Below are positions 11,216 through 54,517 of a stretch of 64,000 bases of DNA, in pieces. The translations under genes and the position numbers were made by a program. Source of the DNA: an uncultured Sphingomonadales bacterium (GTDB lineage Bacteria > Pseudomonadota > Alphaproteobacteria > Sphingomonadales > Govanellaceae); assembly GCA_964508185.1 (NCBI GenBank), contig CAZDSS010000002.1, positions 6,674 through 70,673 of the forward strand, in the 5' to 3' direction. The first letter of the stretch is position 1; the number at the start of each line of letters is the position of its first letter. The notes beneath the pieces were generated by a model. That model did not search any database, was not told the origin of the DNA, and was given only the letters and a program-made list of their open reading frames with translations.

Positions 11216-11977
11216 CTAGCCGTCCACCTCCATATGCATGGAGTAGGCGAAGCGGTCGCCGGGATGGTGGCTGGCGGAGAATTCCAGCACGCGCCCGCTC
11301 GCGTCGTAATAGCAGCGGAGAATGCGCAGGCAGGGGCTGCGGCGCGGAATGCCGAGCTCCGCCGCCACCGCCGTGCTCGCCGGCACCGCCTGGATGTCCT
11401 GGGTCACCCGCACGATCTTCGTGCCCGACAGCCGTTCCAGTTGCTGGAAGATGGTGTCCTGGTTGGGCTTGATGGCCTTGGCCGCCGCGAGAAGGTCGGG
11501 ATGGATGTAGGTGTCGGTGAGCGCGATGGGCTCCGCCTGGCCGGTGCGCGTGCGCAGGCCGCGGAAATGATACCAGCGGCGCTTGTCCGTGATCCCCGCA
11601 TGGACGGCAAGGGACTTCGGCAGCGGCACCTCGCCCTGGGCCGTGAACAGATAGCGGGTGTCCCGCGCGTATTGCAGGATTTCGCCCACGTTCGACAGCG
11701 GCTGATAGAGCGCCCCGCCGCGGGCGGACGCCGGCTGGATCACCGTGCCCGAGCCCTGGCGTCGCTGGATGAGCCCTTCCGCCTGCAGGGAGCGCAGCGC
11801 CTCGCGCACGGTGAAGCGGCTCACCTCGAAACGGGCGCAAAGCTCGCTTTCGGTCGGGAACGGATTGGGGTGAAGATAGTCGCCGCGAAGGATCTCCGCG
11901 CGCAGTTCGTCCGCAAGTTCCTGATAACGGGGCTTGCGCGCCCGCTTCACGGCTACCGCCTGACTGGAACCCGGCAA
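11216..11977 (-). CDS. GntR-family transcriptional regulator, HutC subfamily (winged HTH plus UTRA domain)
   Basis: 253 aa. N-terminal GntR wHTH (LPTESELCARFEVSRFTVREALRSLQAEGLIQRRQGSGT). The C-terminal domain has the length and pattern of a UTRA effector domain. Confidence 0.88.
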   Translation of the reverse strand: MPGSSQAVAVKRARKPRYQELADELRAEILRGDYLHPNPFPTESELCARFEVSRFTVREALRSLQAEGLIQRRQGSGTVIQPASARGGALYQPLSNVGEILQYARDTRYLFTAQGEVPLPKSLAVHAGITDKRRWYHFRGLRTRTGQAEPIALTDTYIHPDLLAAAKAIKPNQDTIFQQLERLSGTKIVRVTQDIQAVPASTAVAAELGIPRRSPCLRILRCYYDASGRVLEFSASHHPGDRFAYSMHMEVDG

Positions 11978-29933: not shown

Positions 29934-30039
29934 GCTGAGCACCTCCGTTATCGTTTTCCGAAGATTGCCCAAGGAGGGGTGTTCTTGGCTAACAACTTTT
30001 TGTCTTTGTCTCCATCCATCGGTTGTATATAAGGATGCC

Positions 30040-30945
30040 ATGGAATCCCGTCACATCCGTCATTTCCTTGCGGCCTACGACGCCGGCACCTTCGCCGCCG
30101 CCGCCGAGCGCCTGGGCCTCAGCCAGCAGGCGGTGAGCAAGAGCATCCTTCGCCTTGAAAGCCAGCTCGGCGTGCGTCTCTTCGAGCGCGACGGGCGGCG
30201 CATCCGCCCCACCGAATATGCCGAGCTGTTCCTGCCCCATGCCCGCACCATGGCGGCGGAGGCGGAGCGATTCCGCGCCGGCCTCGATGACATGCTGGGC
30301 GGGCGGCGCGGCCTGGTGCGTGTGGGCGTGGGGCCGAGCGCCGCGGCCCACATGGTGGCCGCCGCCGCCGACCATCTGGTGCGCGAACGGCCGGGGCTTC
30401 GCATGCAGGTGCTGGCCGGGATCTACGAGGACATGATCGAGGATCTGGTGTGCGGCAAGCTCGACCTGTTCGTCGCCGTGCGCCTCGTGGAGCGGCGCTC
30501 CCCCCTGATCCGGGAAGAAAAGCTCTGCGACATCGATTATGTGGTGGTGGCGGGGCCGGACCATCCGCTGGCCGATCTCGAGGACATCACCCTTGAACGG
30601 CTTGTCCAGGAGCGCTGGATATCCGGCGCCAATCTCGGCGTCATCGAGGAAGCGATCGAGAACAGCTTCGCCGCCGAGGGTCTCGCCCTCCCCCGGCCGG
30701 AGATCGAGACCACGTCCCTGCTTTTCACCCTCGCCATGCTCGACCGCGGGCGGCATCTCAGCATCCTGCCCGAAATGCTGGTGAGCCACGAAATCGCTTC
30801 CGGCCGCCTCGTGAAGCTCAGGCTGCGCGCCGCGCCCTGGCGGCGGCCGCTGATCGTGGCGACGCGCGCGCGGGGCGTGAAATCTCCCCTCGTCGAGATG
30901 CTGATCGCGCAGTTCAGAAATCATCTCGCAACGGCACAAGGATAA
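30040..30945 (+). CDS. LysR-family transcriptional regulator
   Basis: 301 aa. N-terminal HTH MESRHIRHFLAAYDAGTFAAAAERLGLSQQAVSKSILRLESQLGVRLFER. Divergent from 29409-29933. Confidence 0.9.
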   Translation: MESRHIRHFLAAYDAGTFAAAAERLGLSQQAVSKSILRLESQLGVRLFERDGRRIRPTEYAELFLPHARTMAAEAERFRAGLDDMLGGRRGLVRVGVGPSAAAHMVAAAADHLVRERPGLRMQVLAGIYEDMIEDLVCGKLDLFVAVRLVERRSPLIREEKLCDIDYVVVAGPDHPLADLEDITLERLVQERWISGANLGVIEEAIENSFAAEGLALPRPEIETTSLLFTLAMLDRGRHLSILPEMLVSHEIASGRLVKLRLRAAPWRRPLIVATRARGVKSPLVEMLIAQFRNHLATAQG

Positions 30946-39751: not shown

Positions 39752-40684
39752 TTATCGGCAACCCGCGGTTGGCAGGGTTGCGGAACTCCCCTTCGCCACG
39801 ATCTTGCGCACCTCGTCGAGGAAGCGGACGGAATCGGGCGAGCGCGTGCTGTTCTTGCGGAAGAAGACGGCGGTGGGCCGCTGCCACGGCGGCGAGGCCA
39901 CGTCGATCACCGCGAGCAATCCCGCCTCCACGTCGCGCCGCACCATCTCGTAGGGCAGCAGGAACAGGGCGTCCGACGCCTGGGCGAGGCTGACGGCGAA
40001 GGCCACCGAATCCGTCCGGAACTGGGCCTGCGGCGGCTCGAGCCCCGCGGCCTCGAAGCTTTCGCGCGCTTCCTCGATCGCCCGGTCCTCGTCCAGTCCC
40101 ATGATCCAGGGATAGGTTTCAAGCTCCTCGAGGGTCACGGCCTTGCGCCCGGCCAGGGGGTGTCCCGCGCGGCCGAACAGGTGATAGGTTTCCTGATTGA
40201 CGATGTGATGGCCGATCAGGGGATCCACCTCGTCCCGCGTCATGATGCTGACGAAGACGTCGATCTTGCCGTTGACGAGCTGCGGCATCAGGGTTTCATA
40301 GGTCCCTTCCACCACGGTGACCGAGAGCTTCGGATTCCAGCGCTTCACGGCCAGCACGGCGCAGGCGGCGATCTGCATGGCCGCGGCGGCGCCGACGCCG
40401 ATCGCGAGATCGTTGGTGCCCGTGCCCAGCATCTGGTCGAGATCGCGGCGGAGGCTCCGCACCTCGGCGTCGATGTTGCGGGCATAGGCCTCGATGCGCT
40501 CGGCGAAAAGGGTCGGATTCACCGAGCGGCTGTCGCGGTCGAACAGCCGGACGCCGAGGCTTTCCTCGAAACGGCGGATGCTCTTGCTCAGCGCCTGGGG
40601 CGTCAGATGGCACATCTCCGCCGCGCGCCAGTAGCTTCGCGTTTCCATGAGCGCCAGAAAATGGCGCAATTGCCGGATCTCCAT
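39752..40684 (-). CDS. LysR-family transcriptional regulator
   Basis: 310 aa. HTH MEIRQLRHFLALMETRSYWRAAEMCHLTPQALSKSIRRFEESLGVRLFDR. Same strand as, and directly upstream of, the TBDR cassette. Confidence 0.9.
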   Translation of the reverse strand: MEIRQLRHFLALMETRSYWRAAEMCHLTPQALSKSIRRFEESLGVRLFDRDSRSVNPTLFAERIEAYARNIDAEVRSLRRDLDQMLGTGTNDLAIGVGAAAAMQIAACAVLAVKRWNPKLSVTVVEGTYETLMPQLVNGKIDVFVSIMTRDEVDPLIGHHIVNQETYHLFGRAGHPLAGRKAVTLEELETYPWIMGLDEDRAIEEARESFEAAGLEPPQAQFRTDSVAFAVSLAQASDALFLLPYEMVRRDVEAGLLAVIDVASPPWQRPTAVFFRKNSTRSPDSVRFLDEVRKIVAKGSSATLPTAGCR

Positions 40685-40707
40685 GGTCCTCCCCCTGTTG
40701 CCGCGAT

Positions 40708-40719
40708 TTGTCTGGACAA
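40708..40719 (+). promoter_or_regulatory. Operator copy 5 (TTGTCTGGACAA) in the LysR / ba3-oxidase divergent region
   Basis: GATTTGTCTGGACAACGGG lies 23 nt upstream of the LysR ATG (40684) and about 180 nt upstream of the cbaD-like start. The A/T flank is oriented toward the plus-strand oxidase operon. Confidence 0.55.
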
Positions 40720-40898
40720 CGGGATCATTTCAGCATTTGGGGAGTCCCTTGGCAAGGGGCGCAGCGAGAAGCACCGGCTGGATGATGGTGTATGCCGCCC
40801 CTCAATTCCCGCCTGCCGGGGAACTTTTGCCCCCCTTGCGCCCTTATCCCCAGAGGCCGGTGCTGATGTCCGCAGGTCGGCCGGAAAGGGGGACGACC

Positions 40899-41099
40899 AT
40901 GTATCCCTATGACGAACCCTCCGCCGCAGACCGGCCAGAAGACGTGGAAGATCGCGTGAACGAAGACGATCTCGACCGCGTGATGGCCGAGGTCCCGCGC
41001 GGCGCCATGGCCCTTGCGGGCGTCGCCCTCCTCGTCCTCATGCTGTTCTGGCTCGTCATCTATTTCGGCGTCTTCATTCCCCGCGGCCCGGTGAATTGA
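40899..41099 (+). CDS. cbaD: ba3-type cytochrome oxidase small subunit IIa (CbaD-like) with acidic N-terminal extension
   Basis: 66 aa. The ATG at 40899 is preceded by AAAGGGGGA. The single TM tail PRGAMALAGVALLVLMLFWLVIYFGVFIPRG closely resembles, from memory, Thermus subunit IIa (...KPKGALAVILVLTLTILVFWLGVYAVFFARG). It sits directly upstream of subunits II and I. Confidence 0.65.
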   Translation: MYPYDEPSAADRPEDVEDRVNEDDLDRVMAEVPRGAMALAGVALLVLMLFWLVIYFGVFIPRGPVN

Positions 41100-41109
41100 G
41101 GAGTCGCAC

Positions 41110-41649
41110 ATGGACGAGCGCGACATCCTGAGGACCGAGCTGCGCTGGGGCGCCGTGGTGGCCGCCGCGGTCGCCCTCATCATCGCGGTGATCGTGGTCA
41201 CCGGCCTCGCCATGGCGCTGCACCCGCCGAGCAATGTGGAGCTCGTGAGCCCCACCCGCATCCATCTCGAAGGCGAGTTCGCCGAAAGCAATCTCGGCAG
41301 CATGGAAAACCCGGACGGCTCGGTGACCGTGCGCGTCGTCGCGACCCAGTTCACCTTCCTGCCGCGCTGCATTCCGGTGCCTGTCGATCGGCCGGTGAGC
41401 CTGCGCATCACCAGTCCCGACGTGATCCACGGCCTCATCGTCAGCGGCACCAATGTGAACACCATGGTCGTCCCCGGCTACGTGGCGGAGGTCAACACCC
41501 GCTTCCGCGCCGCGGGCGACCATCTGATGCCCTGCCACGAATATTGCGGCCTCGGGCACAGCGAGATGTGGAGCATCATCCGCGTCCTGCCGGCGGAGCG
41601 CTGGCAGCCGGACGAGAACGGGAGGGTCGCTTGTGACTTACAGGGCTGA
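41110..41649 (+). CDS. cbaB: Cytochrome c oxidase subunit II, ba3 (B-family) type, CuA cupredoxin
   Basis: 179 aa with one N-terminal TM segment. ITSPDVIHG plus CuA ligands CHEYCGLGHSEM. Confidence 0.88.
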   Translation: MDERDILRTELRWGAVVAAAVALIIAVIVVTGLAMALHPPSNVELVSPTRIHLEGEFAESNLGSMENPDGSVTVRVVATQFTFLPRCIPVPVDRPVSLRITSPDVIHGLIVSGTNVNTMVVPGYVAEVNTRFRAAGDHLMPCHEYCGLGHSEMWSIIRVLPAERWQPDENGRVACDLQG

Positions 41650-43264
41650 CCGACTGATCCTCGCCCATCTCTGGGTCGCCTTCGCGGCCTTCGCCTTCGC
41701 CGCGGTGCTTGGCGCATGGCAGATGCTGGTGCGAAGCCCGCTGCCCGCGCCCTTCGCCCATAACGAAACCTATTTCGCCTCGGTCACCGCCCACGGCACC
41801 CTCATGGCCTATGTGCTGACGACGCTGTTCGTCATGGGCTTCGGCTATTTCGTGGCGGTGACCGCCCTCGACCGGCCGCTGCCCAGCATGCGCGCGGCCT
41901 GGGTCGGGTTCTGGCTGGCGGTTGCAGGGATCGTTCTTGCCGCCGTCACCGTGCTTTCGGGCCGCGCCACGGTGCTTTACACCTTCTACCCGCCCCTCAC
42001 GGGGAGCGTGTTCTATTATCTCGGCGTCCTCCTCGTGGTCATCGGCTCGTGGATCTGGTGCGCGCTGATGATCATCGCCCTCATGCGCTGGAAGCGGGAG
42101 CAGCCGGGACGTCCCGTTCCGCTCGCCATGTATGCGACGGTCGCCAATGTGGTGCTGTGGCTCTGGACCACGGTGGGGGTCGGCGTCGAACTGCTGTTCC
42201 AGGTGATCCCCGCCGCCCTCGGTCTCACCGAGACGGTGGATGTGGGGCTGTCCCGCACCCTCTTTTCCTGGACCCTGCATGCCATCGTCTATTTCTGGCT
42301 GATCCCGGCCTATATCGCGTTCTACACCATCCTGCCGCGGGCGGCGGGCGGGCGGCTTTACAGCGACACCATGGGGCGGCTGAGCTTCATCCTGTTCCTG
42401 CTCTACAGCCTGCCCGTTGGCATGCATCACCTGTTCATGGATCCGGAGCACGGGAGCGGCTTCAAGTTCCTGCAGATGATGCTGACGGCGCTTGTCACCG
42501 TGCCCACCCTGCTCACGATCTTCACCATCGGCGCGTCGCTCGAGATCGCAGGCCGGCTCAGGGGCGGCAAGGGCCTTTTCGGCTGGCTCCGCACCCTGCC
42601 CTATGACCGGCCCATGGTGCTGGCGGCGGCGCTTGCCTTCATCATGCTGGGGCTCGGCGGCTTCGGCGGCCTCATCAACATGGCCTACGGCATGAACGCC
42701 ATGGTTCACAACACGTCGTGGGTCACCGCGCACTTCCACCTGATCTTCGGCGGCTCCGTCGTCATCATGTATTTCGCGATCGCCTACGAGATCTGGCCGA
42801 AGCTCACCAACCGCCGCGCGCCCTCCGTCGCCCTGCAGCGCCTGCAGCTCTGGACATGGTTCGTCGGCATCATGGTGACCACGCTGCCATGGCATGCCCT
42901 GGGCCTCTTTGGTCAGCCGCGGCGGGTTGCGACCTTCGACTACGACAACCCGATCCTCAGCCACTGGGGGCCGTGGACGGTGGTCTCCGCCGTCGGCGGC
43001 TTCATCATGCTGGTGGGCGCGCTTCTCTTCGTCTGGAACCTCGCGCGGCATCATGGCGGCGTCGTCGCGCCCGCCCGGCGCATGACCTATGCCCTCGCCG
43101 TCCATCCGCCGCAGCGCCTGCCCGCGGCGCTCAACGGCTTCGCGCTGTGGAACTGGCTGGTGCTGTTCCTGATGGCGGTGGCTTACGGCTATCCCATCGC
43201 CCAGTTCTTCCTGATCGATGTGGAGCCCGCGCTCATCCACCGCGTCGCCGGGGGAGGCCCGTGA
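41633..43264 (+). CDS. cbaA: Cytochrome c oxidase subunit I, ba3 (B-family) type
   Basis: 543 aa. GTG start after GGGAGGG. B-family blocks ATVLYTFYPPL, HAIVYFWLIPAY (His-Tyr), VGMHHLF, GRLRGGKGLFGWLRTLP and HNTSWVTAHFH. Confidence 0.92.
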   Translation: MTYRADRLILAHLWVAFAAFAFAAVLGAWQMLVRSPLPAPFAHNETYFASVTAHGTLMAYVLTTLFVMGFGYFVAVTALDRPLPSMRAAWVGFWLAVAGIVLAAVTVLSGRATVLYTFYPPLTGSVFYYLGVLLVVIGSWIWCALMIIALMRWKREQPGRPVPLAMYATVANVVLWLWTTVGVGVELLFQVIPAALGLTETVDVGLSRTLFSWTLHAIVYFWLIPAYIAFYTILPRAAGGRLYSDTMGRLSFILFLLYSLPVGMHHLFMDPEHGSGFKFLQMMLTALVTVPTLLTIFTIGASLEIAGRLRGGKGLFGWLRTLPYDRPMVLAAALAFIMLGLGGFGGLINMAYGMNAMVHNTSWVTAHFHLIFGGSVVIMYFAIAYEIWPKLTNRRAPSVALQRLQLWTWFVGIMVTTLPWHALGLFGQPRRVATFDYDNPILSHWGPWTVVSAVGGFIMLVGALLFVWNLARHHGGVVAPARRMTYALAVHPPQRLPAALNGFALWNWLVLFLMAVAYGYPIAQFFLIDVEPALIHRVAGGGP

Positions 43265-44130
43265 TGCAGGACCGGCCCGCAGTCCCCGCCGAACAGGAAG
43301 CCCTGAACCGCCCGTGGCGCGTCTGGGCGACGGTCGCCGTCGTCGTCTTCGTGGCGGTGAGCGTGCTTCTGGGCTTCGTCGTGCTCCCCAAGCAAGCGGG
43401 CGCCGACGACAGCCTGTTCGCCGCCATCTGCCGGGCGATCGGCATACCCGGCTATGGCGCGCCCCAAGACTCGGGAGCGGGCGCGGGCGACAAGCCGATC
43501 GCCGCATCCAACGTCGCCTGGTCGCCCGAGATCCGCGGCGGCCTCAAGCGCGCCAACCTCGAGAACGGCGCAAGGATCGCGGGCGAGATCTGCGTCAGCT
43601 GCCATGGCGAGGACGGGATCGCGGTCGATCCCATCTATCCCAATCTCGCCCACCAGTCGCCGCGCGCCATCTTCAAGCAGCTGCAGGACTATGCGGACGG
43701 GCGGCGCACCGGCGGCCAGGCGGAGGTGATGATGCCCTTCGCCCAGCAGCTCGACGACCAGCAGCGCTTCGATGTGGCTGTCCATTACGCCGCCCAGACG
43801 CCGAAACCGCAGATCGTGGCGGCAAGCGCCGTCGATCCGAGGATCGCCGAGATCGCCCGCCACGGCCATATCGGCCGCGGCATTCCGGCCTGTGATTCCT
43901 GCCACGGCATCGGGCTTACGGGACCCGAGGAGACGCCGGTGCTCAACGGCCAGCCACGGGACTATCTGGAACAGCAATTGACCAGTTTCGCGAACGGCGA
44001 ACGCAGCAACGACATCTATGCGCGGATGCGGGAGATCGCGCGGCTCCTGACGCCCGAGGAGATCCGCCAGCTTGCGATCTATTACAGCGGCAAGCCGGAG
44101 ACCCGCTACAAGCCGCACCCCCTGCGCTGA
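43264..44130 (+). CDS. Membrane-anchored dihaem c-type cytochrome
   Basis: 288 aa from the ATG at 43264, which shares one base with the subunit I TGA. N-terminal TM segment VWATVAVVVFVAVSVLLGFVVL. Two haem c motifs, CVSCHG and CDSCHG. Confidence 0.85.
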   Translation: MQDRPAVPAEQEALNRPWRVWATVAVVVFVAVSVLLGFVVLPKQAGADDSLFAAICRAIGIPGYGAPQDSGAGAGDKPIAASNVAWSPEIRGGLKRANLENGARIAGEICVSCHGEDGIAVDPIYPNLAHQSPRAIFKQLQDYADGRRTGGQAEVMMPFAQQLDDQQRFDVAVHYAAQTPKPQIVAASAVDPRIAEIARHGHIGRGIPACDSCHGIGLTGPEETPVLNGQPRDYLEQQLTSFANGERSNDIYARMREIARLLTPEEIRQLAIYYSGKPETRYKPHPLR

Positions 44131-44133
44131 GGC

Positions 44134-44907
44134 TCAATAGGGCTTGATGAGGCTGCCGCCGTCCACGGGGAAGGCCGCGCCGGTGGTGAAGCGGGATTCT
44201 TCGGACGCGAGGAACAGGTTGGCCAGCGCCACCTCCTCCGCCGTGCCGATGCGCTTGATGGCGTGGCAGGACGCGAAATAGGCGCGAAGCCCATCGGGAT
44301 CCTCGGCGGCGTCCAGATATTCCTGCAGCATGGGCGTGTCGATCGCCGCCGGATGGACGGAATTGCAGCGGATATTGTAGCCGCTTTCGGCGCAATGGAG
44401 GGCGACGGTCTTGGTGAGATTGTCGAGCGCCGCCTTGCTTGCCCCATAGGCGCAGAGCATGGCGCCGGTGCGGATGCTCTCGATCGACGAGATGTTGATG
44501 ATGGAGCCGTAGCCCGACCGCTTCATGGCCGGGATCGCGTATTTGCAGCCAAGGAACGCCCCTTCCGCATTGGTCAGCTGATGGTCGCGCCATTCTGCGA
44601 GGTCGATCTCCTCGATGGTGCCGGGGCGGCTGATCCCGGCGCTCTGCACCAGGACATGGAGGGCGCCGAAGGTCCGCTCCACTTCCTCGATGGTCCGGAT
44701 CCAGGAATCCTCCGCCCGCACGTCGAGGGGAAGCTCGATCGCGCCGTCGCCAAGCTCCGCCGCAAGGGCCCGGGCCCGTTCCCGGTCGATGTCTCCGATC
44801 GCGACGCGCGCGCCCTCGGCATGGAACAGGCGCACCGTCGCCTCCCCGATCCCCGATGCGCCGCCGGTGACCAGCGCCACCTTGTCCTTGAGCCTGCCCT
44901 GCGTCAT
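44134..44907 (-). CDS. Short-chain dehydrogenase/reductase (SDR)
   Basis: 257 aa. TGGASGIGEA, catalytic YGASKAAL, and NSVHPAAIDTPM. Confidence 0.9.
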   Translation of the reverse strand: MTQGRLKDKVALVTGGASGIGEATVRLFHAEGARVAIGDIDRERARALAAELGDGAIELPLDVRAEDSWIRTIEEVERTFGALHVLVQSAGISRPGTIEEIDLAEWRDHQLTNAEGAFLGCKYAIPAMKRSGYGSIINISSIESIRTGAMLCAYGASKAALDNLTKTVALHCAESGYNIRCNSVHPAAIDTPMLQEYLDAAEDPDGLRAYFASCHAIKRIGTAEEVALANLFLASEESRFTTGAAFPVDGGSLIKPY

Positions 44908-45009: not shown

Positions 45010-46083
45010 TCAGCGCCGCATGGCCGCCCGCGCCCGCCACAGATAGATGCCGAGGCAGACCATGGAAACCAGCCAGATCGCGATGACGAGCACGATCACG
45101 CGCCCGATGGTGCCCACATATTCCCCCGTATGAATGGGGTAGATGGCGTTGAGGAAGGCGGGCCCCGGCCCTTCCTTCAGGGCGTCATGATCGGCGAGAA
45201 TCTGGCCGTTCGCCGCATCCACATAGACCTGCGTGGTGCCGAAGATGCGCCGCGGCTCCTCCGGCTGGCGGATGGTGACGCGGTACCAGTAGGCGTCGGC
45301 CCGCGGCATGGTGAGGATCGAAAGCCGCGCCCCCGGATAGCGGGCGAGCGCCGTCTCGATCGCCGCGTCCGGCGAGACCGGCACGGCGGCGGGATCGCCG
45401 GTGCGGGTGACGGTGGGCGACGCGCTCACCGGGCCGAGCCAGTCATAGAGCGGCCCGCCCCAGACCTGGAGGATACCGGTGGTAACGATGAGGATCGCCG
45501 GAATGCCGAGCCACAGGCCGAGCGCGCGATGCCAGCCATAGGCCTTGGCGGCGCCGCCCTTCGCCTTTGCCGGCGCGAGCGCCCTTCCCCAGCGCCCCGC
45601 CTGCGGCCAGGCGAGCTTGAGGCCAAGGATCAGGTTGGTGAGCAGCAGAAAGCCGCTCGTTCCCACGAGCCAGGCGGACCATTCGCCGGCGAACATGGTC
45701 TCGTGCCAGGTATGGGCGATCTTGAGGATGCCCGCATTCAGGAAATCGTGGTTCGACGGCCGCTCGCGGAGCACGGCGCCGTCGCCGTCCACATGGCGGA
45801 TGCGGGACTTGCCCTCCCCGTCCACGAGATAGATGTCGAAGCGGTCGGGATTGCCGCGGCTTGCATAGACATAGGGAATGCGGCGGTCGGGATTGTCCGC
45901 CTGGGCCTCGGCGATGGCGCGCCCGAGGGCGGCGACGTCCAGCGGATGGGTCTCCCGGTCGATCGACGCCTGATCGAGCTCTCCCTGGAATACGAGCAGG
46001 GCGCCTGTGAGGCCCTGCAACAGCCAGAAAATGGCAAGGATCACGCTGAGCCAGCGATGAATGCGACGCAGGTTGTTCTTCAT
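45010..46083 (-). CDS. PepSY-associated TM-helix protein (PiuB-like)
   Basis: 357 aa. N-terminus RRIHRWLSVILAIFWLLQGLTGALLVF and C-terminal IHTGEYVG are typical of PepSY_TM proteins. Confidence 0.8.
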   Translation of the reverse strand: MKNNLRRIHRWLSVILAIFWLLQGLTGALLVFQGELDQASIDRETHPLDVAALGRAIAEAQADNPDRRIPYVYASRGNPDRFDIYLVDGEGKSRIRHVDGDGAVLRERPSNHDFLNAGILKIAHTWHETMFAGEWSAWLVGTSGFLLLTNLILGLKLAWPQAGRWGRALAPAKAKGGAAKAYGWHRALGLWLGIPAILIVTTGILQVWGGPLYDWLGPVSASPTVTRTGDPAAVPVSPDAAIETALARYPGARLSILTMPRADAYWYRVTIRQPEEPRRIFGTTQVYVDAANGQILADHDALKEGPGPAFLNAIYPIHTGEYVGTIGRVIVLVIAIWLVSMVCLGIYLWRARAAMRR

Positions 46084-46192
46084 GGGGTCAGTCCCCTTTT
46101 CCTTTCAAGCGTCGGTCGAGATTACCGGGTCGCCCCGGATCCGTCTTGACGAGCAGGGCCGAATTTTATCGCAATCGGGCCGCGCCCGTTCA

Positions 46193-49100
46193 TCAATTCG
46201 TGAGCCCGTCCTCGCCATGGAACCAGAGGGGCGGCAACGGCTTCTGGCGCGGCCAGACCTCGTCCAGCGTGTTGCCGTCATAAAGCCGCCCGTTCTTCAT
46301 GACGAACTCGATCGCGCGGGCATGGCGCACGTTTTCAAGGGGGTTGCGGGTGAGAACGAGTAGATCGGCGTATTTCCCGGGCTCGATGCTGCCCATCTGC
46401 CGCCCGCGCCCGATCATGGTGCTGGAGCCGAGGGTCGCGATCCGCAGCACTTCGTGAGGTGTCAGGGCCGAGGCCAGCAGTTCCATTTCCCAATGCATGG
46501 CGACCCCCTCGAACTCGCTGTGGCTCCCGGCGCCGACGATGCCGCCGTTGCGGACGATCTGCGCCACCGCCTTCGCGTAATGGGGATAGGCGTAGCGGTC
46601 GTCGCGGAAGATGGTGAGCCGCTGGCTTTTCTCGTCGATATGGAAGCGCGGGAAGAAGCGGCGGACCTTGGGGTCGTTCGCAAGGTCGTCCTTCAGGGTC
46701 ATCAGGTGCAGGCCCGCGACCCCGTCGCTGATGTCGAGCGTCGGGCTGTAGCCCGTTCCCGTTGCGCGGAACATCTGCACCACGTCGTCGCCGAAGGGTG
46801 TGGCCGGGATCGCATGCTCGACCCCCGCATAGCCGTCGATCACCATGGTGAGATCGAGCTTGAGATTGCTCGCCCCCTCGGTCGTCGGCATCAGCTTCAT
46901 TTCCCGCGCAACATTGGCGAACCACTGCCGCACCTGCCGGTTGCCGACGCGGTACTGCTTCAGGTTCTGCACGCGGTAATGATCCCGGTAGCGGGTGAGC
47001 ACGTCGCGCACCTGCTGCTCGGACCTGAATTCGTTGAAGGAGAAGACGGCGGGCCCCGTGGAATAGGCGCGAAGCCCCGTCATCATCCCCGCCGCCAGCA
47101 TGTCCTCGTAGGGCAGCATGTCGATGGTGAGCGGCGACACATCGAGCCCCGCGGTCACGCCGAAGGCGAGGTTGGCGAGGAAGGCGTAATTTTCCAGATC
47201 CAGCACCCGGCGGCGGATCTCCGCCCAATGGGCGTGACTGTCCACGAGCCCCGGCATGACGAAGCGGCCCGAAAGATCGCGCAGCTCCGCCCCCTCCGGC
47301 ACGGGGAAGGATCCGCGGGAGCCGATGGCCGCGATGCGATTGTCGCGGATCAGGATGTCGGCGTCATGGATCACCTCGTCGCCCTTCATGGTGATGGCGG
47401 TCGCGCCGCGAAGGAGGAGCAAACCCTCCGGCTTGTCGCGCGGCATCTCCACGACGGCGACGAAACTCTGCGTGCTGCGGGCGATGGTGTCGTTCGTCTC
47501 CGGCGGGCCGGAGAAATCGATGCTCGCGAGCGGACGGCGGTAGAAGCTCGACCCCACCGCCCAGGTGATTGTGCGCCCGTCATCCGCCCAGTTCATGAAA
47601 TCGGCGCCGACGGTCGTGAGCTGGCGATGGGCGACCGCCGCGCCGCCCACATCCGCTTCCACCGCCGCGCCGCTGAGCGGCGGCATGGCGACGAGATATA
47701 GCTGCGACCGGATCTGGGCGAGCAGCCATTTGCCGTCGGGGCTGAGGCGCAGATCGAAGACGGGGACGCGGCCTTCCTCGAAATAATATGCGGGGCCCGT
47801 CACCTTCACATGCCGCCGCCGGTCGGAGCCGTCGGGCCGGAAGGAGGTGAGTCCTTCCGCCGCATGGATGAAAACCCGGTCGGCGTCCCTCGTGAACTGC
47901 GCCGGGCCGCCGAAGGCGCCGCTTGCGATCCGCTCCGCCCGCCCCGTTTCCAGATCGATGCGGACGAGATCCGCCTGGCGAAACGCGCCATATTCCATGC
48001 GGCTGTGGAGCCGGGCATGATGGCTCGACCGCAGGACCATCACGCTCCGCCCGTCGGGCGTGAAAACGGGATCGCTGTAATAGGCGGCATCCTGCGTGAG
48101 GCGTTCGGGCGTCCCGCCGTCGCGGGCGACGCGCCACACATGCCCCCCGTCCCGCGCCGTCCAGGTGACGAAGGTGACCTGTTTTCCGTCCGGCGACCAG
48201 GCGGGCTGGAATTCGGGAAGATCGCCGTCGGTGAGACGCCGCGGCGTCGCGCCGTTTGCCGCAAGATCCATGGCGTAGATCCGCGCGAAGGCGGAAAAGA
48301 CCAGAAGCTTGCCGTCGGGCGACTGGCTGGGGTTGCGGATGAGGCGGGCGCGCACCGGGCCCTCGTCGTCCGCAAGCTCGCGGCGGAGCGATGGGCCCGC
48401 CACAAGCCGCACATCCGCCGTGAAGGGAATGACCGTGGCCTCGCCGGTATCAAGGGCCACGCGCCGGATGCGCCCCTCATGGGCGAAGATCACGGCCTCC
48501 CCGTCCGGCGTGAAGGCGTAGCGGGGAATGAGGTCGAGGGTCGGCCAGCTTTCCTGCTCGTCCATCTGCACGGGATAGGCGACGAGCCGGTCGTCCCCCG
48601 TCTCGAGATCGCGAAGCCTCAGCGCCGTGCCGTCCTTGAGCCGCGTCGCATAGAGCAGCTTGCGGCCGTCGCGGGACAGCACCGGGCGCATGGCGCTCCC
48701 CTGCGCGGTCACCACCGTCTCCTCGTCGCCGGTCGCAAGGTCACGGCGCTGGATGGACCAGAGGGGCAGCGCATCGCTGCTCGCGAAGCGGCCCGCCTTG
48801 CTGGCGTAATAGACATGCCGCCCGTCGGGAGAGGCCGCGACCCCGAGGGCGTTGCGTCCGTTCTCGCGGAACACGGGAAGGCCCGTGCCGCCCGCCACGT
48901 CATAGGCCCAGATCTCGAACAGGCCGCGGTCCGGCCGGATGCGCGAGACATAGACGAAGCGACCGTCCGGCGACCAGGCGGGCGACGTGAACTCCGTATT
49001 GTCGTCGATCTGGGAAAGCTGGCGCGGATTGCCGCCGTCCGCATCCGCGATCCACAGGTTTTCGTTGCCGCTGCGGTCGCTGACGAAGGCGATGCGCCTG

Positions 49101-49387
49101 CCGTCGGGCGAAAAGACCGGCTGGGATTCGAAGGCAAGGCCCCTGAGGATCGGTCGGGCCTTGCCGCCACTCGCATCGACGGCATAGATGTCGCCCAGCA
49201 TGTCGAAGATGATGCTGCGGCCGTCGGGCGACATGTCGAGCCACATCCAGGTGCCCGTCTCCGTGGTGAAGCGGATCTCCCGCGTGTTGCGGAGCGGCAG
49301 CGGATCCTCGGCGGCGAGGCCCGAAACCGGCAGCAGGGCGGCCGCCGCAAGACACAGGATCCGCGTGAAGGGCAGGATGCGCATCAT
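46193..49387 (-). CDS. Periplasmic TolB-like beta-propeller / amidohydrolase fusion protein
   Basis: 1064 aa. Signal peptide MMRILPFTRILCLAAAALLPVSGLAA. The N-terminal roughly 600 aa contain repeated PxFSPDG/WSPDG propeller blades. The C-terminal amidohydrolase domain carries PGLVDSHAHW. Confidence 0.85.
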   Translation of the reverse strand: MMRILPFTRILCLAAAALLPVSGLAAEDPLPLRNTREIRFTTETGTWMWLDMSPDGRSIIFDMLGDIYAVDASGGKARPILRGLAFESQPVFSPDGRRIAFVSDRSGNENLWIADADGGNPRQLSQIDDNTEFTSPAWSPDGRFVYVSRIRPDRGLFEIWAYDVAGGTGLPVFRENGRNALGVAASPDGRHVYYASKAGRFASSDALPLWSIQRRDLATGDEETVVTAQGSAMRPVLSRDGRKLLYATRLKDGTALRLRDLETGDDRLVAYPVQMDEQESWPTLDLIPRYAFTPDGEAVIFAHEGRIRRVALDTGEATVIPFTADVRLVAGPSLRRELADDEGPVRARLIRNPSQSPDGKLLVFSAFARIYAMDLAANGATPRRLTDGDLPEFQPAWSPDGKQVTFVTWTARDGGHVWRVARDGGTPERLTQDAAYYSDPVFTPDGRSVMVLRSSHHARLHSRMEYGAFRQADLVRIDLETGRAERIASGAFGGPAQFTRDADRVFIHAAEGLTSFRPDGSDRRRHVKVTGPAYYFEEGRVPVFDLRLSPDGKWLLAQIRSQLYLVAMPPLSGAAVEADVGGAAVAHRQLTTVGADFMNWADDGRTITWAVGSSFYRRPLASIDFSGPPETNDTIARSTQSFVAVVEMPRDKPEGLLLLRGATAITMKGDEVIHDADILIRDNRIAAIGSRGSFPVPEGAELRDLSGRFVMPGLVDSHAHWAEIRRRVLDLENYAFLANLAFGVTAGLDVSPLTIDMLPYEDMLAAGMMTGLRAYSTGPAVFSFNEFRSEQQVRDVLTRYRDHYRVQNLKQYRVGNRQVRQWFANVAREMKLMPTTEGASNLKLDLTMVIDGYAGVEHAIPATPFGDDVVQMFRATGTGYSPTLDISDGVAGLHLMTLKDDLANDPKVRRFFPRFHIDEKSQRLTIFRDDRYAYPHYAKAVAQIVRNGGIVGAGSHSEFEGVAMHWEMELLASALTPHEVLRIATLGSSTMIGRGRQMGSIEPGKYADLLVLTRNPLENVRHARAIEFVMKNGRLYDGNTLDEVWPRQKPLPPLWFHGEDGLTN

Positions 49388-49396
49388 CAGGACACC

Positions 49397-50686
49397 TCAG
49401 CGATAGGCGGGCGGCAGTCCGGAATTCCGGTTCTTCGGGTGATAACGGTCGCGAAGCTCCGTTTCACGGGTCTTCAGCGATACGGGCGTCCCGCCGACGA
49501 TGACTTCGACAGGCGCGCTCGTCACCTCCAGCGGATCGCCGTCCCAGATCACGAGATCGGCCGCGTGGCCTGCGGCGATGACGCCCGCGTCCGCCATGCC
49601 CCAGATCTTCGCAGCGTTACGGGTGAGCGCCGCAAGCGCCGCATCCCAGGGAAGGCCGTTCGCGACCGCGATCCCGGCGCTTTCGCGGGGACTTGCGCCC
49701 GCATGGTAGGTCATGTTGATGCCGGAATTGAAGAAGGCGATCGTCACCCCCGCTTCATGGAGCATCGCCGCATTGTCGCGCCGCGCGCCCATCTGGTCGA
49801 AGCTCGTGGGCAGATTGTCGGCGGGATCGATCACCACCGGAATGTTCCTGGCGGCAAGCAGGTCCGCGACCCGCCAGGCCTCCGCCGCCCCGACGAGGAT
49901 GACGCGGATGCCGTAGTCGTCCGCAAGGCGCACCGCCTCGCGAATGTCCGACTCCCGATGGACGGAAAGGGCGAGCGGGATTTCCCCCTTCAGCACCGGC
50001 TGCAGGGCTTCGACATCGATCTGCCGCAAAAACTGCTCCCCGCCCGGACGGTTGCGGAAGACGCGGAGGAAACTGCCCTGCGCGCGCGCCTCGTCGAAGG
50101 CGCGGCGGATCATCTGCCATTCGGCGCTTCGCGACCGGTCGCCCTCGCCCGTGGTGCCGCCGCCGACGGCGGCGAAGAGCGCGATTTTCGGCCGGTCCAG
50201 AATGTCGGACCCGGGCAGGAGGCGGAGACCGGCGCCGAAGCCGAGAAAGGGCGTTCCCGTCTGGCTGCTCGGCGCGGCGACGGCGCGGGTGAGCCCCTCC
50301 GCCCGCGCGATGGGGATCGCGACGGATGCGGCATTGATGCCGTATTGCACGTCGAAGGCGATGCCATAGCCCTGCGCCCCCTGGGCGTGGTCCACCGTAT
50401 CTTCCGCATTCCCCACCTCGACGAGGCCGAGGCGGGTGAGCGAATTCGTGAGGCCGGGGGTCACGAACCTTCCCCCCGCATCGATCACGCGGGCATCATC
50501 CGGAGCATCGGTTTCTGTACCCACCGCCGCGATCTTTCCATCGCGAATGACGATCGTCGCGTCATCAAGCGTGCCCCCGTCGGTCATGGTGACGGCGCGG
50601 GCATGGGTGATGACGACGGTTTCCGCCGCGGCGGGAGCGGACGCGAGAAGAAGGGCCGTGGCCAGGGCCGCAACACATGTCCTCAT
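49397..50686 (-). CDS. Periplasmic amidohydrolase family protein
   Basis: 429 aa. Signal peptide ending SAPAAA. Amidohydrolase-like composite-domain N-terminus (IVIRDGKIAAVG). 4-bp overlap with the upstream gene. Confidence 0.8.
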   Translation of the reverse strand: MRTCVAALATALLLASAPAAAETVVITHARAVTMTDGGTLDDATIVIRDGKIAAVGTETDAPDDARVIDAGGRFVTPGLTNSLTRLGLVEVGNAEDTVDHAQGAQGYGIAFDVQYGINAASVAIPIARAEGLTRAVAAPSSQTGTPFLGFGAGLRLLPGSDILDRPKIALFAAVGGGTTGEGDRSRSAEWQMIRRAFDEARAQGSFLRVFRNRPGGEQFLRQIDVEALQPVLKGEIPLALSVHRESDIREAVRLADDYGIRVILVGAAEAWRVADLLAARNIPVVIDPADNLPTSFDQMGARRDNAAMLHEAGVTIAFFNSGINMTYHAGASPRESAGIAVANGLPWDAALAALTRNAAKIWGMADAGVIAAGHAADLVIWDGDPLEVTSAPVEVIVGGTPVSLKTRETELRDRYHPKNRNSGLPPAYR

Positions 50687-52101
50687 CGCCGCCCCTCCCC
50701 GGCAAAGCCCAGCTCAAGGTCTGAGCCCGGCTGAAACGCCGGATCCGCCCGGTCATAGACAAGGGCGCCGTCGATATAGACCTGATCGGCCTTGCTGTAG
50801 GTGCTGAAGGGATCGCCGGACCAGACGACGAGGTCGGCATTCTTGCCCGGCTCGATGGAGCCGATCCTGTCCTCGAGCCCGATGAGGCGGGCCGCATTCA
50901 GCGTTACCCAGCGGATTGCATGCTCGCTCGGGATATCAAGCCCGGCGCGGCGCCCCGCCGCCATGGCCTTGGCCGCTTCCAGATTGAGCCGCTGCCCGAC
51001 GACAGGGGAATCCGAATGCATGGCGGCGCAGCCGCCCGCGGCGTCGAGGAAGGCCGCATTCTCGCGGATGCCGTCGATCCCTTCCATCTTGAAGCCCCAC
51101 CAGTCGGACCAGACGGCGGCGCAGATTCCCTTTTCGGCAAGCAGGGGCGCGATCTTGTAGGCCTCCGTCGCATGATGGAAGGCCGCAAGGCGCAGGCCGA
51201 ACTCGGCCGCCACGTCCATGACGTTCGCCATGTCGTCGGCGCGGTAGCAATGGACATGGACCCGGATTTCACCCTGAAGCGCCCGCGCGAGGGTTTCGAG
51301 CCTGAAGTCCCGGGCGGGCGGCGGATCGTCGTCCCCTTCGGCAAGCTCCCGCCGGTATTCATCCCACTTGGCCATGTATTCGCGCGCCGCCTGCAGCGCC
51401 TGGCGCATGCCGGCGACGACACCCATGCGGCTTCCCGGCGCCATGCCGCGCAGCCCATAGTTGTATTTGGGATTTTCCCCGCAGGCCATCTTGAGCGGCA
51501 CCGGCGCGCCGGGGAATTTTCGGTCCTGCACGGTCACCGTCGGCACGTTCTTGAGGACGACGCCCCGGCCGCCGAAGAGATTGGTGGAGCCGGGCAGGAT
51601 CTGCAGCGTGGTCACGCCCCCTTCGAGCGCGCGGACGAAGGCCGGATCCTGGGCGAAGATCGCGTGCTCGGCGAAGACATGGGCGGTGTTGGGATCGGTG
51701 CGCTCGTTCACGTCCCAGGACTTGAGCTCGAGCGGCGTGATGGGAAGCGGCGCGTTGCCGAGATGGGAATGAGGGTCGACGATCCCGGGGGTGAGCCACC
51801 GTCCCGCGCCGTCGATGACCTCGACGCCGGCCGGGATCTCGAGATCCGCGCCGATGGCCGCGATCTTGCCGTCCCGCACCAGAACCGCGCCCTTCTCGAT
51901 GCGACCGCCCGCGCCGTCGAGGATGGTGACATTGGTGATCGCAAGGTCATGGCGGGGAAGCGGCGCATAGGTGCTGGGGAACGGGTCCGGATCGAAGGGA
52001 AAGAGGTCGTCCGCCATGGCTTGGCCGGTCAATGCGGCAAGGATCAAAACCGCTGCCGCCACATGTCCCACCGCGCGCCCCCTGAGCTTTTCCTCCGTCA
52101 A
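50683..52101 (-). CDS. Periplasmic amidohydrolase family protein (imidazolonepropionase/dipeptidase-like)
   Basis: 472 aa with a signal peptide. Motifs LVRDGKIAAIGA, PGIVDPHSHLG and later HCY/HH ligand blocks. Confidence 0.82.
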   Translation of the reverse strand: MTEEKLRGRAVGHVAAAVLILAALTGQAMADDLFPFDPDPFPSTYAPLPRHDLAITNVTILDGAGGRIEKGAVLVRDGKIAAIGADLEIPAGVEVIDGAGRWLTPGIVDPHSHLGNAPLPITPLELKSWDVNERTDPNTAHVFAEHAIFAQDPAFVRALEGGVTTLQILPGSTNLFGGRGVVLKNVPTVTVQDRKFPGAPVPLKMACGENPKYNYGLRGMAPGSRMGVVAGMRQALQAAREYMAKWDEYRRELAEGDDDPPPARDFRLETLARALQGEIRVHVHCYRADDMANVMDVAAEFGLRLAAFHHATEAYKIAPLLAEKGICAAVWSDWWGFKMEGIDGIRENAAFLDAAGGCAAMHSDSPVVGQRLNLEAAKAMAAGRRAGLDIPSEHAIRWVTLNAARLIGLEDRIGSIEPGKNADLVVWSGDPFSTYSKADQVYIDGALVYDRADPAFQPGSDLELGFAGEGRR

Positions 52102-52195
52102 CGAACCGCCCCCCTTCGGATCTTCGCCAAAAACAGCCGTGGCCCGGAAACAATTGTGGCGTGGATCATATCAGATCCACGCCACCCGTGCAGGA

Positions 52196-54376
52196 TCAGA
52201 ACTTGCGGGTGATGGAGCCCACCACCTGCCGCTTCACGCCGTAGAAGCAGTCGGTGGCGGAGCTGCAACGCTGGACATATTCCTTGTCGAACAGGTTGTT
52301 GGCATTGACCGCAAGCCGCCACTGTTCGGTGTCGTAATGGATGATGGCGTCGAACAGGGTGACGCTGCCCGTGCGCCACAGATTGGCCTCATCCCCGAAG
52401 ACGGAGCTGATATGGCGCACGCCCGCGCCAGCGCCGAGACCGGCGAGCGGCCCGTCCTGGAAGGTATAGTCCACGAGGAGCGACGCCTTGTGCTTCGGCA
52501 CCGCCATCAGGCGGGAGCCGAGGACGGCGGGATCGTTGCTCTCGGTCACCTCGCTGTCCGTGTAGGTGTAGGAGGCGTTGATGCTCAGGCGCTCGCGCCA
52601 GCGCATGACGCCTTCAAGCTCGACGCCGTTCACCTCCACTTCCCCTTCCTGCACCTGGGCGAAGGGGTTGCTCGGGTCGTTGGCCGGGGTCAGCACGTTC
52701 TTCTGCACCAGGTTGAACACCGCGGCGGAGGCGAAGACCTTGAGATCGGGGCCGAGATTGGCGCCATCATACTTGATCCCCGCTTCGTACTGCGTGCCGG
52801 TCGTCGGCACGAACGGGTCGCCCGTATAGACGCTGCGGCCCGCCACCGGCTGGAAGGACTTGGCCATCTGCACATAGGGCGCGATGCCGCTCGGGAAGAC
52901 GTAGTTGAGGCCCACGCGATAGGTGAACTTGTCGTCCTTCGTGCGGTCGCCGGCATTGGCGCTGGACACCCAGTCCTGACGGCCGCTGACGGTGAGCACC
53001 AGACGGTCGAAGCGGATCTGGTCCTGGATGTAGAGGCCCTTCTGCTTCTGCTGCTGGTCGTCGAACGGGAACAGCGCGGGCATGGGCACGTCGGCGCCAT
53101 AGACCGGATTGAAGATGTCGATGGACGGCGCGACGGCAAAGCCGAATTCCGACTGATAGTCATAGTCACGGTAATCGAAGCCGACGAGGATCGAATGTTC
53201 GAGCGCGCCGGTGTTCACCTGCCAGTGCAGGCGCGTGTCCACGTTGAACGACTTCACCACCTCGTTGAACGGGAAGTCGTAGCGGTTGAGCGTGCGGTAG
53301 TCGTCCGGCACGCCGTCGAAGTCGGCGTCCAGCAGCCCCGCGCCGTAGATCACGCGGGACTCCGTCTCGGCCTTGAAATATTTCAGGTTCTGCTGCAGCG
53401 ACAGGTTGTCGGCGAAGCTGTGGGAGAAGTCATAGCCCACCGCCCACTGCTCGCGGTTGAAGAAGTTGACCCCCGGCTCGCCGGGGAAGAAGCTCGGCGA
53501 GATCTTGCCGAGGGGGTTCGGCAGCAGCGTGCCGAAGGCCGGCAGGAAGCCGTGGGTCTCGTTGTCCACGTCATCCTTCTGGTAATAGGCAAGCAGCGTG
53601 AGCTGGGTCTCGGGCTTGAGCTGCATGGTCAGCGCCGGGGCCACATAGACGCGCTCGGACTCGGCGTAATCCACCTGGCTTTCGCGGTCGCGATAGAGGC
53701 CGGTCAGGCGGAAGGCGAGATTTTCGGTGATCGGGCCGGTGATGTCGGCGTTGGCCTGCTTGTGATCGTAATTGCCGTACTGGATCTCGGCCTCGCCGCC
53801 CCATTCGAACTGGGGCCGGCGGCTGCGCATGTTGACGATGCCGCCGGGCGGCGTCTGGCCGTAGAGCACCGAGGACGGACCCTTGAGCACATCGACGCTC
53901 TCGAAGCCGTAAAGATCGGTGCCCGTATTGGTGACCGAGCCCACCGGGGCCTGCAGGCCGTCGATATACTGGACGGGATAGAAGCCGCGCACGGTCAGCC
54001 AGTCATAGCGGTCATCAGGCCCGAAATTCTCGCCCGTCACACCCGCCGTGTAGCGCATGGCGTCCTGCAGGCTGCTCCAGTTCAGAAGGTCGATCTGGTC
54101 GCGGGAGATGAGGGTCACCGATTGCGGGATCTCGACCAGCGGCGCATCGTCCTTGAGCGCCGACCGGCTCGCGCTCGGCACGTATTCCGGCGCGCTCACG
54201 ATGATTTCTTCCATGGAAAGGGGCCGGTCCTTGTCGGCCGCCGCGTTTCCACCCTCCTGAGCGACCGCCGCCGTCGCGCCGGCGATGATGACGAGCGCCG
54301 TGGTGCCGCGGCAGAGCGCCCGCAGGGACCGCAGCGCGGCGGCCCGTTTTCCTTGTTCAGATGCCATAGCGGCCAT
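52196..54376 (-). CDS. TonB-dependent siderophore-type receptor (FhuA/FhuE-like)
   Basis: 726 aa from the ATG at 54376 (GGGAGAGGA upstream). Plug region VDVLKGPSSVLYGQTPPGGIVNM. C-terminal Phe. The PepSY_TM gene lies nearby. Confidence 0.88.
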   Translation of the reverse strand: MAAMASEQGKRAAALRSLRALCRGTTALVIIAGATAAVAQEGGNAAADKDRPLSMEEIIVSAPEYVPSASRSALKDDAPLVEIPQSVTLISRDQIDLLNWSSLQDAMRYTAGVTGENFGPDDRYDWLTVRGFYPVQYIDGLQAPVGSVTNTGTDLYGFESVDVLKGPSSVLYGQTPPGGIVNMRSRRPQFEWGGEAEIQYGNYDHKQANADITGPITENLAFRLTGLYRDRESQVDYAESERVYVAPALTMQLKPETQLTLLAYYQKDDVDNETHGFLPAFGTLLPNPLGKISPSFFPGEPGVNFFNREQWAVGYDFSHSFADNLSLQQNLKYFKAETESRVIYGAGLLDADFDGVPDDYRTLNRYDFPFNEVVKSFNVDTRLHWQVNTGALEHSILVGFDYRDYDYQSEFGFAVAPSIDIFNPVYGADVPMPALFPFDDQQQKQKGLYIQDQIRFDRLVLTVSGRQDWVSSANAGDRTKDDKFTYRVGLNYVFPSGIAPYVQMAKSFQPVAGRSVYTGDPFVPTTGTQYEAGIKYDGANLGPDLKVFASAAVFNLVQKNVLTPANDPSNPFAQVQEGEVEVNGVELEGVMRWRERLSINASYTYTDSEVTESNDPAVLGSRLMAVPKHKASLLVDYTFQDGPLAGLGAGAGVRHISSVFGDEANLWRTGSVTLFDAIIHYDTEQWRLAVNANNLFDKEYVQRCSSATDCFYGVKRQVVGSITRKF

Positions 54377-54517
54377 GATTTCCTCTCCCGTCCTGTCTTG
54401 TGATCTTGACGCCACGCTGGAAGGGGCCATTCAGGCGCGATTTCCCGCCTGGGCACATGACCCCGAACTTCACTTTAGACCTCTGCCACAAACCCGCTTT
54501 CGCATAAGGGCCGTAGA

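Follow-up and report, generated by a model that had tools for sequence, protein, structure and literature searches.

The B-family haem-copper oxidase with which the system considered here has most in common is the ba3 enzyme of Thermus thermophilus (CbaA/CbaB/CbaD; PDB 1EHK, 1XME, 3S8F). It has a three-subunit core with gene order IIa-II-I, in which subunit II combines a single transmembrane helix with the CuA site and IIa is a single-helix protein, and it uses the soluble cytochrome c552. A more distant solved relative is the B-family oxidase 7DEG, which we take to be that of Aquifex aeolicus, and we know of no c4 partner that is encoded together with the Aquifex aeolicus enzyme. An anchored dihaem cytochrome that belongs to an oxidase operon and serves as the point of electron entry is instead familiar from the cbb3 oxidases, in the form of CcoP or of delivery from c4 to cbb3 in Pseudomonas, Neisseria and Vibrio. 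Here we analyse a 64,000-nucleotide stretch of DNA (the window; contig CAZDSS010000002.1, positions 6,674 to 70,673, assembly GCA_964508185.1) from an uncultured Sphingomonadales bacterium, in which a core of the Thermus type, in the same gene order, is followed by a gene for an anchored dihaem c4-type cytochrome.

B-family oxidases have already been catalogued in Alphaproteobacteria, where they occur sporadically in the class (Degli Esposti et al. 2014, PMC4013037; 2019, PMC6431628), and neither the four-gene cassette with c4 nor the present lineage is described in the parts of these two surveys that were accessible. No description of the c4-containing cassette was found in the searchable literature, which is not proof of novelty, and the c4-coupled clade appears, as far as that literature shows, to have no characterised member. 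The enzyme itself is an ordinary addition to the known B family, and the c4-coupled clade is the less familiar part. It is the picture at the level of the clade, that of a c4-coupled ba3 cassette common in soil metagenomes, that is useful, and the points of interest are this clade and the unusual LysR neighbourhood in which the present copy is found. The explanation that we hold to be quite probable is that the operon encodes a laterally moved, ba3-type B-family oxidase with a dedicated anchored c4, and that the operator in the adjoining intergenic region acts on lysR.

The Operon and the Family of Its Subunits

The plus strand of the window holds, between positions 40899 and 44130, four close-set genes, as seen from the listing of open reading frames (ORFs) and from gene calling based on the GC content of third codon positions (GC3):

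40899..41099, plus strand: coxIIa, subunit IIa; 66 amino acids, one transmembrane helix, acidic N-terminal extension of about 28 amino acids, PF08113
41110..41649, plus strand: subunit II; 179 amino acids, one transmembrane helix and a CuA cupredoxin domain, without a cytochrome c domain
41633..43264, plus strand: subunit I, B-family haem-copper O2 reductase; 543 amino acids, GTG start, COX1
43264..44130, plus strand: anchored dihaem c4-type cytochrome; 288 amino acids, Cytochrom_C, presumed electron-entry subunit or donor

A strong Shine-Dalgarno sequence precedes each of the four starts, AAGGGGGA in the case of coxIIa, then GAGGAG and GGGAGGG, and GGGGGAGG in the case of the cytochrome. The gene of subunit II runs 17 nucleotides into that of subunit I, and the stop codon of subunit I and the ATG of the cytochrome at 43264 share one base, in TGATG, with GGGGGAGG just 5' of it. 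Because the Shine-Dalgarno sites are strong and the genes overlap or adjoin, the arrangement is the layout of a single translationally coupled operon. Its GC3, 0.89-0.90, matches that of the neighbouring genes. An earlier note, made from the sequence alone, had described the locus as a complete B-family oxidase operon with its own dihaem cytochrome, and this description stands: the four genes are intact, and the tree and the matches to sequences of solved structures agree with it. The motifs that were quoted for subunit I, ATVLYTFYPPL, HAIVYFWLIPAY and GRLRGGKGLFGW, are all present in the 543-residue frame at 41633-43264, and the CuA motif CHEYCGLGHSEM lies in the 179-residue frame at 41110-41649, which has no CxxCH and no fused cytochrome. 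The separate anchored cytochrome does start, with its ATG at 43264, in a one-nucleotide overlap with subunit I, and the operon is indeed divergent from the LysR gene at 39752-40684 on the minus strand.

Subunit I matches the Pfam model COX1 with an E-value of 8e-91. When it is compared by phmmer with all PDB chains, the best match is Thermus thermophilus ba3 (3.6e-98, 333 bits, 40% identity) and the second-best is the B-type enzyme 7DEG (1.7e-79), whereas Thermus caa3 reaches only 3.6e-21 and 79 bits and other A-type enzymes are likewise behind; the CcoN model of the cbb3 enzymes gives 27 bits (1e-6). A quick maximum-likelihood tree was calculated that contained, besides the query and Thermus ba3, 19 relatives and a further 15 haem-copper oxidase subunits I of the same genome and its kin, a set without eNOR, bNOR, sNOR and gNOR sequences, and one row of the tree (L046), an ORF-picking error on a long branch, was disregarded. 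In this tree the clade of the query has a Shimodaira-Hasegawa-like approximate likelihood-ratio (SH-aLRT) support of 99 and is sister to Thermus ba3 with a support of 89; the A-type, cbb3 and NOR-like clades are separate from it. The phylogenetic check of the family that the earlier note had called for thus places subunit I inside the B family, and every test of membership that can be made on sequence gives the same answer.

The residues of the catalytic site can be followed one by one in the alignment with the Thermus enzyme. The haem ligands H54, H369 and H367 correspond to Thermus H72, H386 and H384, the CuB ligands H216, H265 and H266 correspond to H233, H282 and H283, and the tyrosine that is cross-linked to histidine, Y220, corresponds to Y237, so that the His-Tyr pair H216...Y220 is found in the sequence HAIVY. 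These six histidines and the tyrosine are invariant across 77 aligned sequences (the query and 76 relatives). K-channel residues are shared with the Thermus enzyme as well: Y227, Y231, S244, T295 and T298 stand where Thermus has Y244, Y248, S261, T312 and T315, and the K-channel position S309 is occupied by T292. In helix VI the motif HAIVY has isoleucine, as in Thermus, at the position where A1 enzymes carry the glutamate of the D-channel. Judged from the K-channel residues and from this helix-VI position, the enzyme would have a single K-type proton channel and no helix-VI D-channel glutamate.

There are also positions at which the clade differs as a whole from the Thermus enzyme. In all 77 aligned subunits I (the window and loci L006-L085), leucine replaces G232 and asparagine replaces D372, in Thermus numbering, and the same sequences have threonine in place of S309 and serine or alanine in place of W229. 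Position 232 is in the O2 channel, and position 372 is close to the exit path and to the propionates of haem a3; both are presumably important in Thermus, where we take mutants to have pointed to them, and this is used here as a lead only.

Subunit II matches the Pfam model COX2 (2e-8), and its best match in the PDB is subunit II of Thermus ba3 (1ehk_B, 2e-26), with 7DEG following at 1e-14. The CuA ligands are found in DVIHG...CHEYCGLGHSEM, with the pattern H-x34-C-x-E-x-C-x3-H-x2-M, and residue E10 corresponds in the alignment to E15(II), at the entrance of the K-channel. A single hydrophobic segment is seen, at residues 9-41, and the Thermus subunit likewise has a single helix. In enzymes of the ba3 type the helix that subunit II lacks is provided by the small subunit IIa. 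Subunit IIa is identified by PF08113 (CoxIIa, 1e-4, 22.5 bits with a cut-off of 20.7) and by the alignment of its residues 29-63 with the entire 34-residue subunit IIa of Thermus ba3 (1xme_C, E-value 2e-3), and it has one hydrophobic segment. It differs from the Thermus protein by its acidic N-terminal extension, which is partly kept in relatives, as tblastn matches span up to 63 amino acids.

The c4-Type Cytochrome

The fourth protein matches cytochromes c4 of known structure over residues 94-277 (8uf3, 2e-26; 6q2u, 1e-22; 1etp, 5e-20). It has two haem-binding CxxCH motifs, CVSCH (residue 110) and CDSCH (residue 210), and within the c4 structure alignment there are two methionine-containing stretches, VMMP and ARMRE. 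The protein thus has the features of a c4, i.e., two predicted class-I domains, each with a CxxCH and a putative methionine sixth ligand. A single hydrophobic segment is found at its N terminus, residues 17-47. Among 49 c4 frames from relatives such an N-terminal hydrophobic segment is present in 46 and exactly two CxxCH motifs in all 49, and of the 79 relatives with enough DNA past subunit I, 78 have the c4 gene directly 3' of it. This conserved fourth gene is a difference from the Thermus system, where the soluble c552 is used. The likeness to the cbb3 oxidases lies in the anchored dihaem cytochrome as such: the core is here a B-family core with CuA, not a C-family core, and the cytochrome is of the c4 family, whereas its match to the CcoP model is weak (1e-5) and far under the cut-off of that model.

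The Cassette in Other Genomes

Homologues number in the thousands, and the best 120 of them, mostly from soil and freshwater metagenomes, are 70-80% identical to the query. Many homologues carry the NCBI name 'cbb3-type cytochrome c oxidase subunit I', a systematic misnomer by which the clade is hidden. Eighty cassette loci were taken from species-representative genomes, and these range over Hyphomicrobiales, Geminicoccaceae, Caulobacteraceae, a few sphingomonads, the gammaproteobacterial Steroidobacteraceae and Acidiferrobacterales, and Acidobacteriota. The genes IIa-II-I-c4 occur in the same order and with the same spacing in nearly every one of the 80 loci that is long enough. When all flanking ORFs of the 80 loci were clustered, no fifth conserved gene was found, and the next cluster is present in at most six loci. 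Because IIa-II-I-c4 is conserved without any fifth gene, the cassette is, as far as gene order tells, a self-contained four-gene unit in varying contexts. Its clade is mesophilic and proteobacterial, which is another difference from the Thermus enzyme. Cultured bacteria that carry it include Microvirga massiliensis JC119, Microvirga brassicacearum CDVBN77, Enterovirga aerilata DB1703 and Methyloferula stellata.

Among the kin of the present bacterium the cassette is rare. A search of 150 genomes from its order, six of them from its own family, did not find it at all, and a sample of 400 genomes from the whole class gave three with it; these counts agree with the earlier note, in which B-family oxidases were called much less common in Proteobacteria than A-family aa3 or C-family cbb3 enzymes. 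The nearest homologues of subunit I, with identities of 77-81%, are in Bauldia, in Geminicoccaceae and in metagenome-assembled genomes (MAGs) of the gammaproteobacterial Steroidobacteraceae. The haem o synthase (CtaB) of the same genome, a single marker protein, is instead closest to that of Govanella unica (77%; Emcibacterales in the NCBI taxonomy) and to those of MAGs labelled Sphingomonadales, so that to call the bacterium a sphingomonad is a loose usage. A genome of the same family (G003:C3:100000-132000) is collinear with window positions 45010-59991 over a PepSY gene, three amidohydrolases, a 744-residue ORF, an AraC gene and two further genes. This synteny stops exactly at PepSY, beyond which the other genome lacks the SDR gene, the ba3 genes, the LysR gene and the group of genes that was labelled cassette C. 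The breakpoint at PepSY is therefore read as the boundary of an island, beside the SDR and ba3 genes. When the rarity in kin, the occurrence of the nearest relatives in other orders and in another class, and the break in synteny are taken together, they indicate that the cassette was acquired laterally, at the point where a variable island ends.

The Intergenic Region and the Operator

The surroundings of the operon that bear on its regulation are as follows:

39752..40684, minus strand: LysR-family regulator (PF00126 and PF03466); transcribed away from the oxidase operon, in the same direction as the cassette of the TonB-dependent receptor (TBDR)
40685..40898: intergenic region of 214 bp that separates the divergent genes lysR and coxIIa
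40708..40719: operator copy 5, TTGTCTGGACAA, of HutC/GntR type; 24 nucleotides 5' of the lysR ATG and 180 nucleotides from the coxIIa ATG
40746..40758: perfect 13-bp palindrome CCCTTGGCAAGGG, from a custom scan; unique in the window, overlapping the proposed -35 element of lysR, a possible regulator site
11216..11977, minus strand: GntR/HutC-type regulator (PF00392 GntR, 4e-21; PF07702 UTRA, 8e-23)
44134-44907, minus strand: short-chain dehydrogenase/reductase (SDR) gene; convergent with the oxidase operon, its end only 3 nucleotides past the stop codon of the cytochrome

The palindrome TTGTCTGGACAA has five exact copies in the window, where 0.04 would be expected, and the 2.9-Mb genome has no others; all five lie within an island of 35 kb. 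It resembles the GTCTAGAC operators of HutC/DasR type, and the regulator at 11216-11977 with its GntR and UTRA domains is likely to be the protein that binds it. In 40 relatives the palindrome is not enriched, with zero to two copies each, the same as for the control. On the minus strand 5' of lysR the order of elements is cTTGCCA, 17 nucleotides ending in TGC, TGAAAT, 7 nucleotides, the palindrome, a Shine-Dalgarno sequence and the ATG. This amounts to a good predicted lysR promoter with an extended -10 TG, for which the operator would be located at about +1. Operator copies 1 and 4 are arranged likewise, there with a minus-strand TTGACA.

Since the operator is 24 nucleotides from the ATG of lysR and 7 nucleotides past the minus-strand promoter, while its distance to coxIIa is 180 nucleotides, it most likely represses lysR and not the oxidase. 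It had been proposed that copy 5 lies upstream of the oxidase operon and is oriented toward it. The first part is correct in the sense that the copy is in the shared intergenic region. The second part has no meaning, because the palindrome is nearly perfect, its two strands differ only in the central two bases, and its orientation is for that reason uninformative.

The same region was inspected for other signals. No relevant terminator was found in a scan for promoters and terminators over positions 40500-44400, and no FNR-type box in a scan of the window; in the intergenic region between lysR and coxIIa there is no T-N11-A dyad of the kind bound by LysR-type transcriptional regulators (LTTRs), a repeat search gave no inverted repeats there, and manual inspection gave no sigma-54 site. 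The situation is different in eight relatives, which have perfect FNR/FixK-type boxes (TTGA-N6-TCAA) at most 300 nucleotides 5' of coxIIa, altogether 10 boxes in about 21 kb when about 0.6 are expected (background 0.009 per 300 nucleotides). These boxes point to O2-responsive control in the lineages of those relatives. Loci listed with such boxes are L016, L020, L033, L038, L042, L044 and L050.

The two LysR genes of the island, at 39752-40684 and 30043-30945, encode proteins that are 37% identical over their full length. Because the LysR next to the oxidase is a paralogue of a second one in the island, it is best counted, from this comparison, among the genes of the island rather than as part of the oxidase cassette. 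A LysR gene is found within 5 kb of the cassette in none of the 80 relatives, and neither the TBDR gene nor the SDR gene nor the PepSY gene is a conserved neighbour in them. No orthologues of the LysR protein were found in 400 genomes of the class, and none of the TBDR of cassette C in 150 genomes of the order. In front of the other LysR gene, at window positions 29980-30040, two tandem TTGTCT half-sites (TTTTTGTCTTTGTCTCC) are seen, and no full palindrome.

Proposed Function

Subunits I, II and IIa would together form a ba3-type, proton-pumping cytochrome c oxidase, to which the membrane-tethered dihaem c4-type cytochrome is dedicated. Electrons would be passed from quinol through the bc1 complex, or from periplasmic dehydrogenases, to the anchored c4, from there to CuA in subunit II, then to the low-spin haem and finally to the site formed by the high-spin haem, CuB and the tyrosine. 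At this site O2 would be reduced to water, with protons supplied through the single K-type channel. The cassette would move laterally among soil Alphaproteobacteria, Gammaproteobacteria and Acidobacteria, and in the present Govanella-like alphaproteobacterial genome it is found on the margin of a variable catabolic island, beside lysR. By analogy with other B-family enzymes, which are usually viewed as oxidases of intermediate to high affinity (PMC6431628), and in view of the FNR-type boxes of some relatives, the enzyme most likely serves at low or fluctuating O2.

Several circumstances weigh against this account. Proton pumping and the haem composition are predictions, and c4 may be either a subunit or a donor of the soluble type. 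The clade-wide changes G232 to L and D372 to N mean that O2 access or pumping may differ from what is known of the model enzyme. The GC content and the GC3 of the operon match those of its neighbours, so that composition gives no independent sign of a recent transfer. An LTTR gene and its target are classically divergent, as lysR and the oxidase operon are here, and no sigma-70-like promoter for the oxidase was found on the plus strand in the scan of positions 40500-44400. As no oxidase promoter has been identified, control of the operon from the shared intergenic region is conceivable.

Alternative Explanations

The alternative that the earlier note had put forward is that the oxidase belongs to the local catabolic regulon. 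In this case derepression would affect it along with the TBDR and the genes of the CoA pathway, either directly by operator copy 5 or by way of a HutC-controlled LysR, and it would reoxidise the carriers that receive electrons in the acyl-CoA dehydrogenase (ACAD) and FAD-oxidase steps. That one of the five genomic copies of TTGTCTGGACAA, all within the 35-kb island, is in the gap between lysR and coxIIa, that a HutC-type regulator as well as ACAD and FAD-linked oxidase genes are encoded in the same island, and that LTTR genes are often divergent from their targets, all speak for such a coupling. Yet the operator is 180 nucleotides from the coxIIa ATG, compared with 24 from that of lysR, and is past a good minus-strand promoter; the T-N11-A dyad is lacking; no LysR gene accompanies the 80 related cassettes; and the oxidase is absent from the 150 searched genomes of the order. 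Electrons from ACAD, furthermore, normally enter the respiratory chain at the quinone pool, and hence no dedicated oxidase is required for them. Regulon membership is thus rather unlikely, and the claim of the earlier note is not borne out, as the operator is placed at lysR, no oxidase promoter is seen and the neighbours are not conserved in the 80 cassettes. Co-induction of the oxidase with the catabolic genes could occur only indirectly, through LysR, which is conceivable but on balance doubtful. If substrate induction through LysR were true, it would be an unusual coupling of the composition of a respiratory chain to one catabolic pathway, and the present evidence does not favour it. Clearly improbable is a wider reading in which all these elements are joined: the cassette as a mesophilic, laterally mobile subclass of the B family, the anchored c4 as a fourth, stoichiometric subunit that has come by convergence to resemble CcoP of cbb3, the invariant G232L and D372N as changes by which O2 access and proton exit are retuned, and the capture of the cassette by a LysR regulator as the event by which the oxidase is switched on with the catabolic island.

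Two further explanations are both very improbable. The enzyme could be a nitric-oxide reductase (NOR) or another non-O2 derivative of the B family, like eNOR, bNOR, sNOR and gNOR, given that several NOR families arose from B-family oxidases and kept their CuA subunits (PMC11214002), and that some 'ba3-like' enzymes of Alphaproteobacteria are without the catalytic tyrosine (PMC6431628). Loss of this tyrosine is a mark of the B-derived NOR families (PMC11214002), whereas here neither the His-Tyr pair nor any of the three CuB histidines varies among the query and its 76 relatives, and no nor or nir genes are conserved beside the cassette; a NOR-type enzyme was rejected on the conserved tyrosine. 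Alternatively, the adjacency of the genes could be an artefact of assembly or binning, or the operon a decaying remnant. The MAG is fragmented, its 2.9 Mb being spread over 227 contigs with a completeness of 89% and a contamination of 2%, and the identical protein is otherwise recorded only on a 2.7-kb contig of low coverage, which does not span the junctions. Against this stand the four intact frames with strong Shine-Dalgarno sites and all catalytic residues, the GC3 shared with the neighbours, and a contig that runs on for more than 20 kb on each side with coherent genes, syntenic on its right flank with a genome of the same family. The readings as pseudogene and as artefact were rejected for the intact genes and the matching codon usage.

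Other Oxidases of the Genome

The earlier note had asked for the rest of the genome to be checked for aa3 and cbb3 operons, and both are present elsewhere. The aa3 operon is divided over two contig ends and is accompanied by CtaB, and CcoN of the cbb3 enzyme is cut by a contig end. There is a second A-type enzyme, caa3-like, with a cytochrome c fused to subunit II and a c4-like gene beside it, and a bd oxidase, CtaA and cytochrome c1 are also encoded. The ba3 enzyme is thereby the fifth terminal oxidase, beside two A-type enzymes, cbb3 and bd. As genes for haem o synthase and for haem a synthase are found, cofactor pathways for a-type haem exist in the genome. What emerges is an alphaproteobacterium with a small genome, rich in TonB receptors, that has five terminal oxidases, one of them probably gained laterally as a ready-made four-gene unit.

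Some further observations were made on these loci. The c4-like gene just 5' of the caa3-like operon (C91:3883-4434, minus strand) encodes a second dihaem cytochrome, 36% identical to the one described above. Directly 5' of the partial cbb3 ccoN, on contig C182 (L004, 594-1265), there is a gene for an Rrf2/NsrR-type regulator. A very divergent COX1-family protein (L098, 231 bits) is encoded in a genome of the same family (G001:C15:67677-68975), and it falls on a long branch outside the A, B and C clades.

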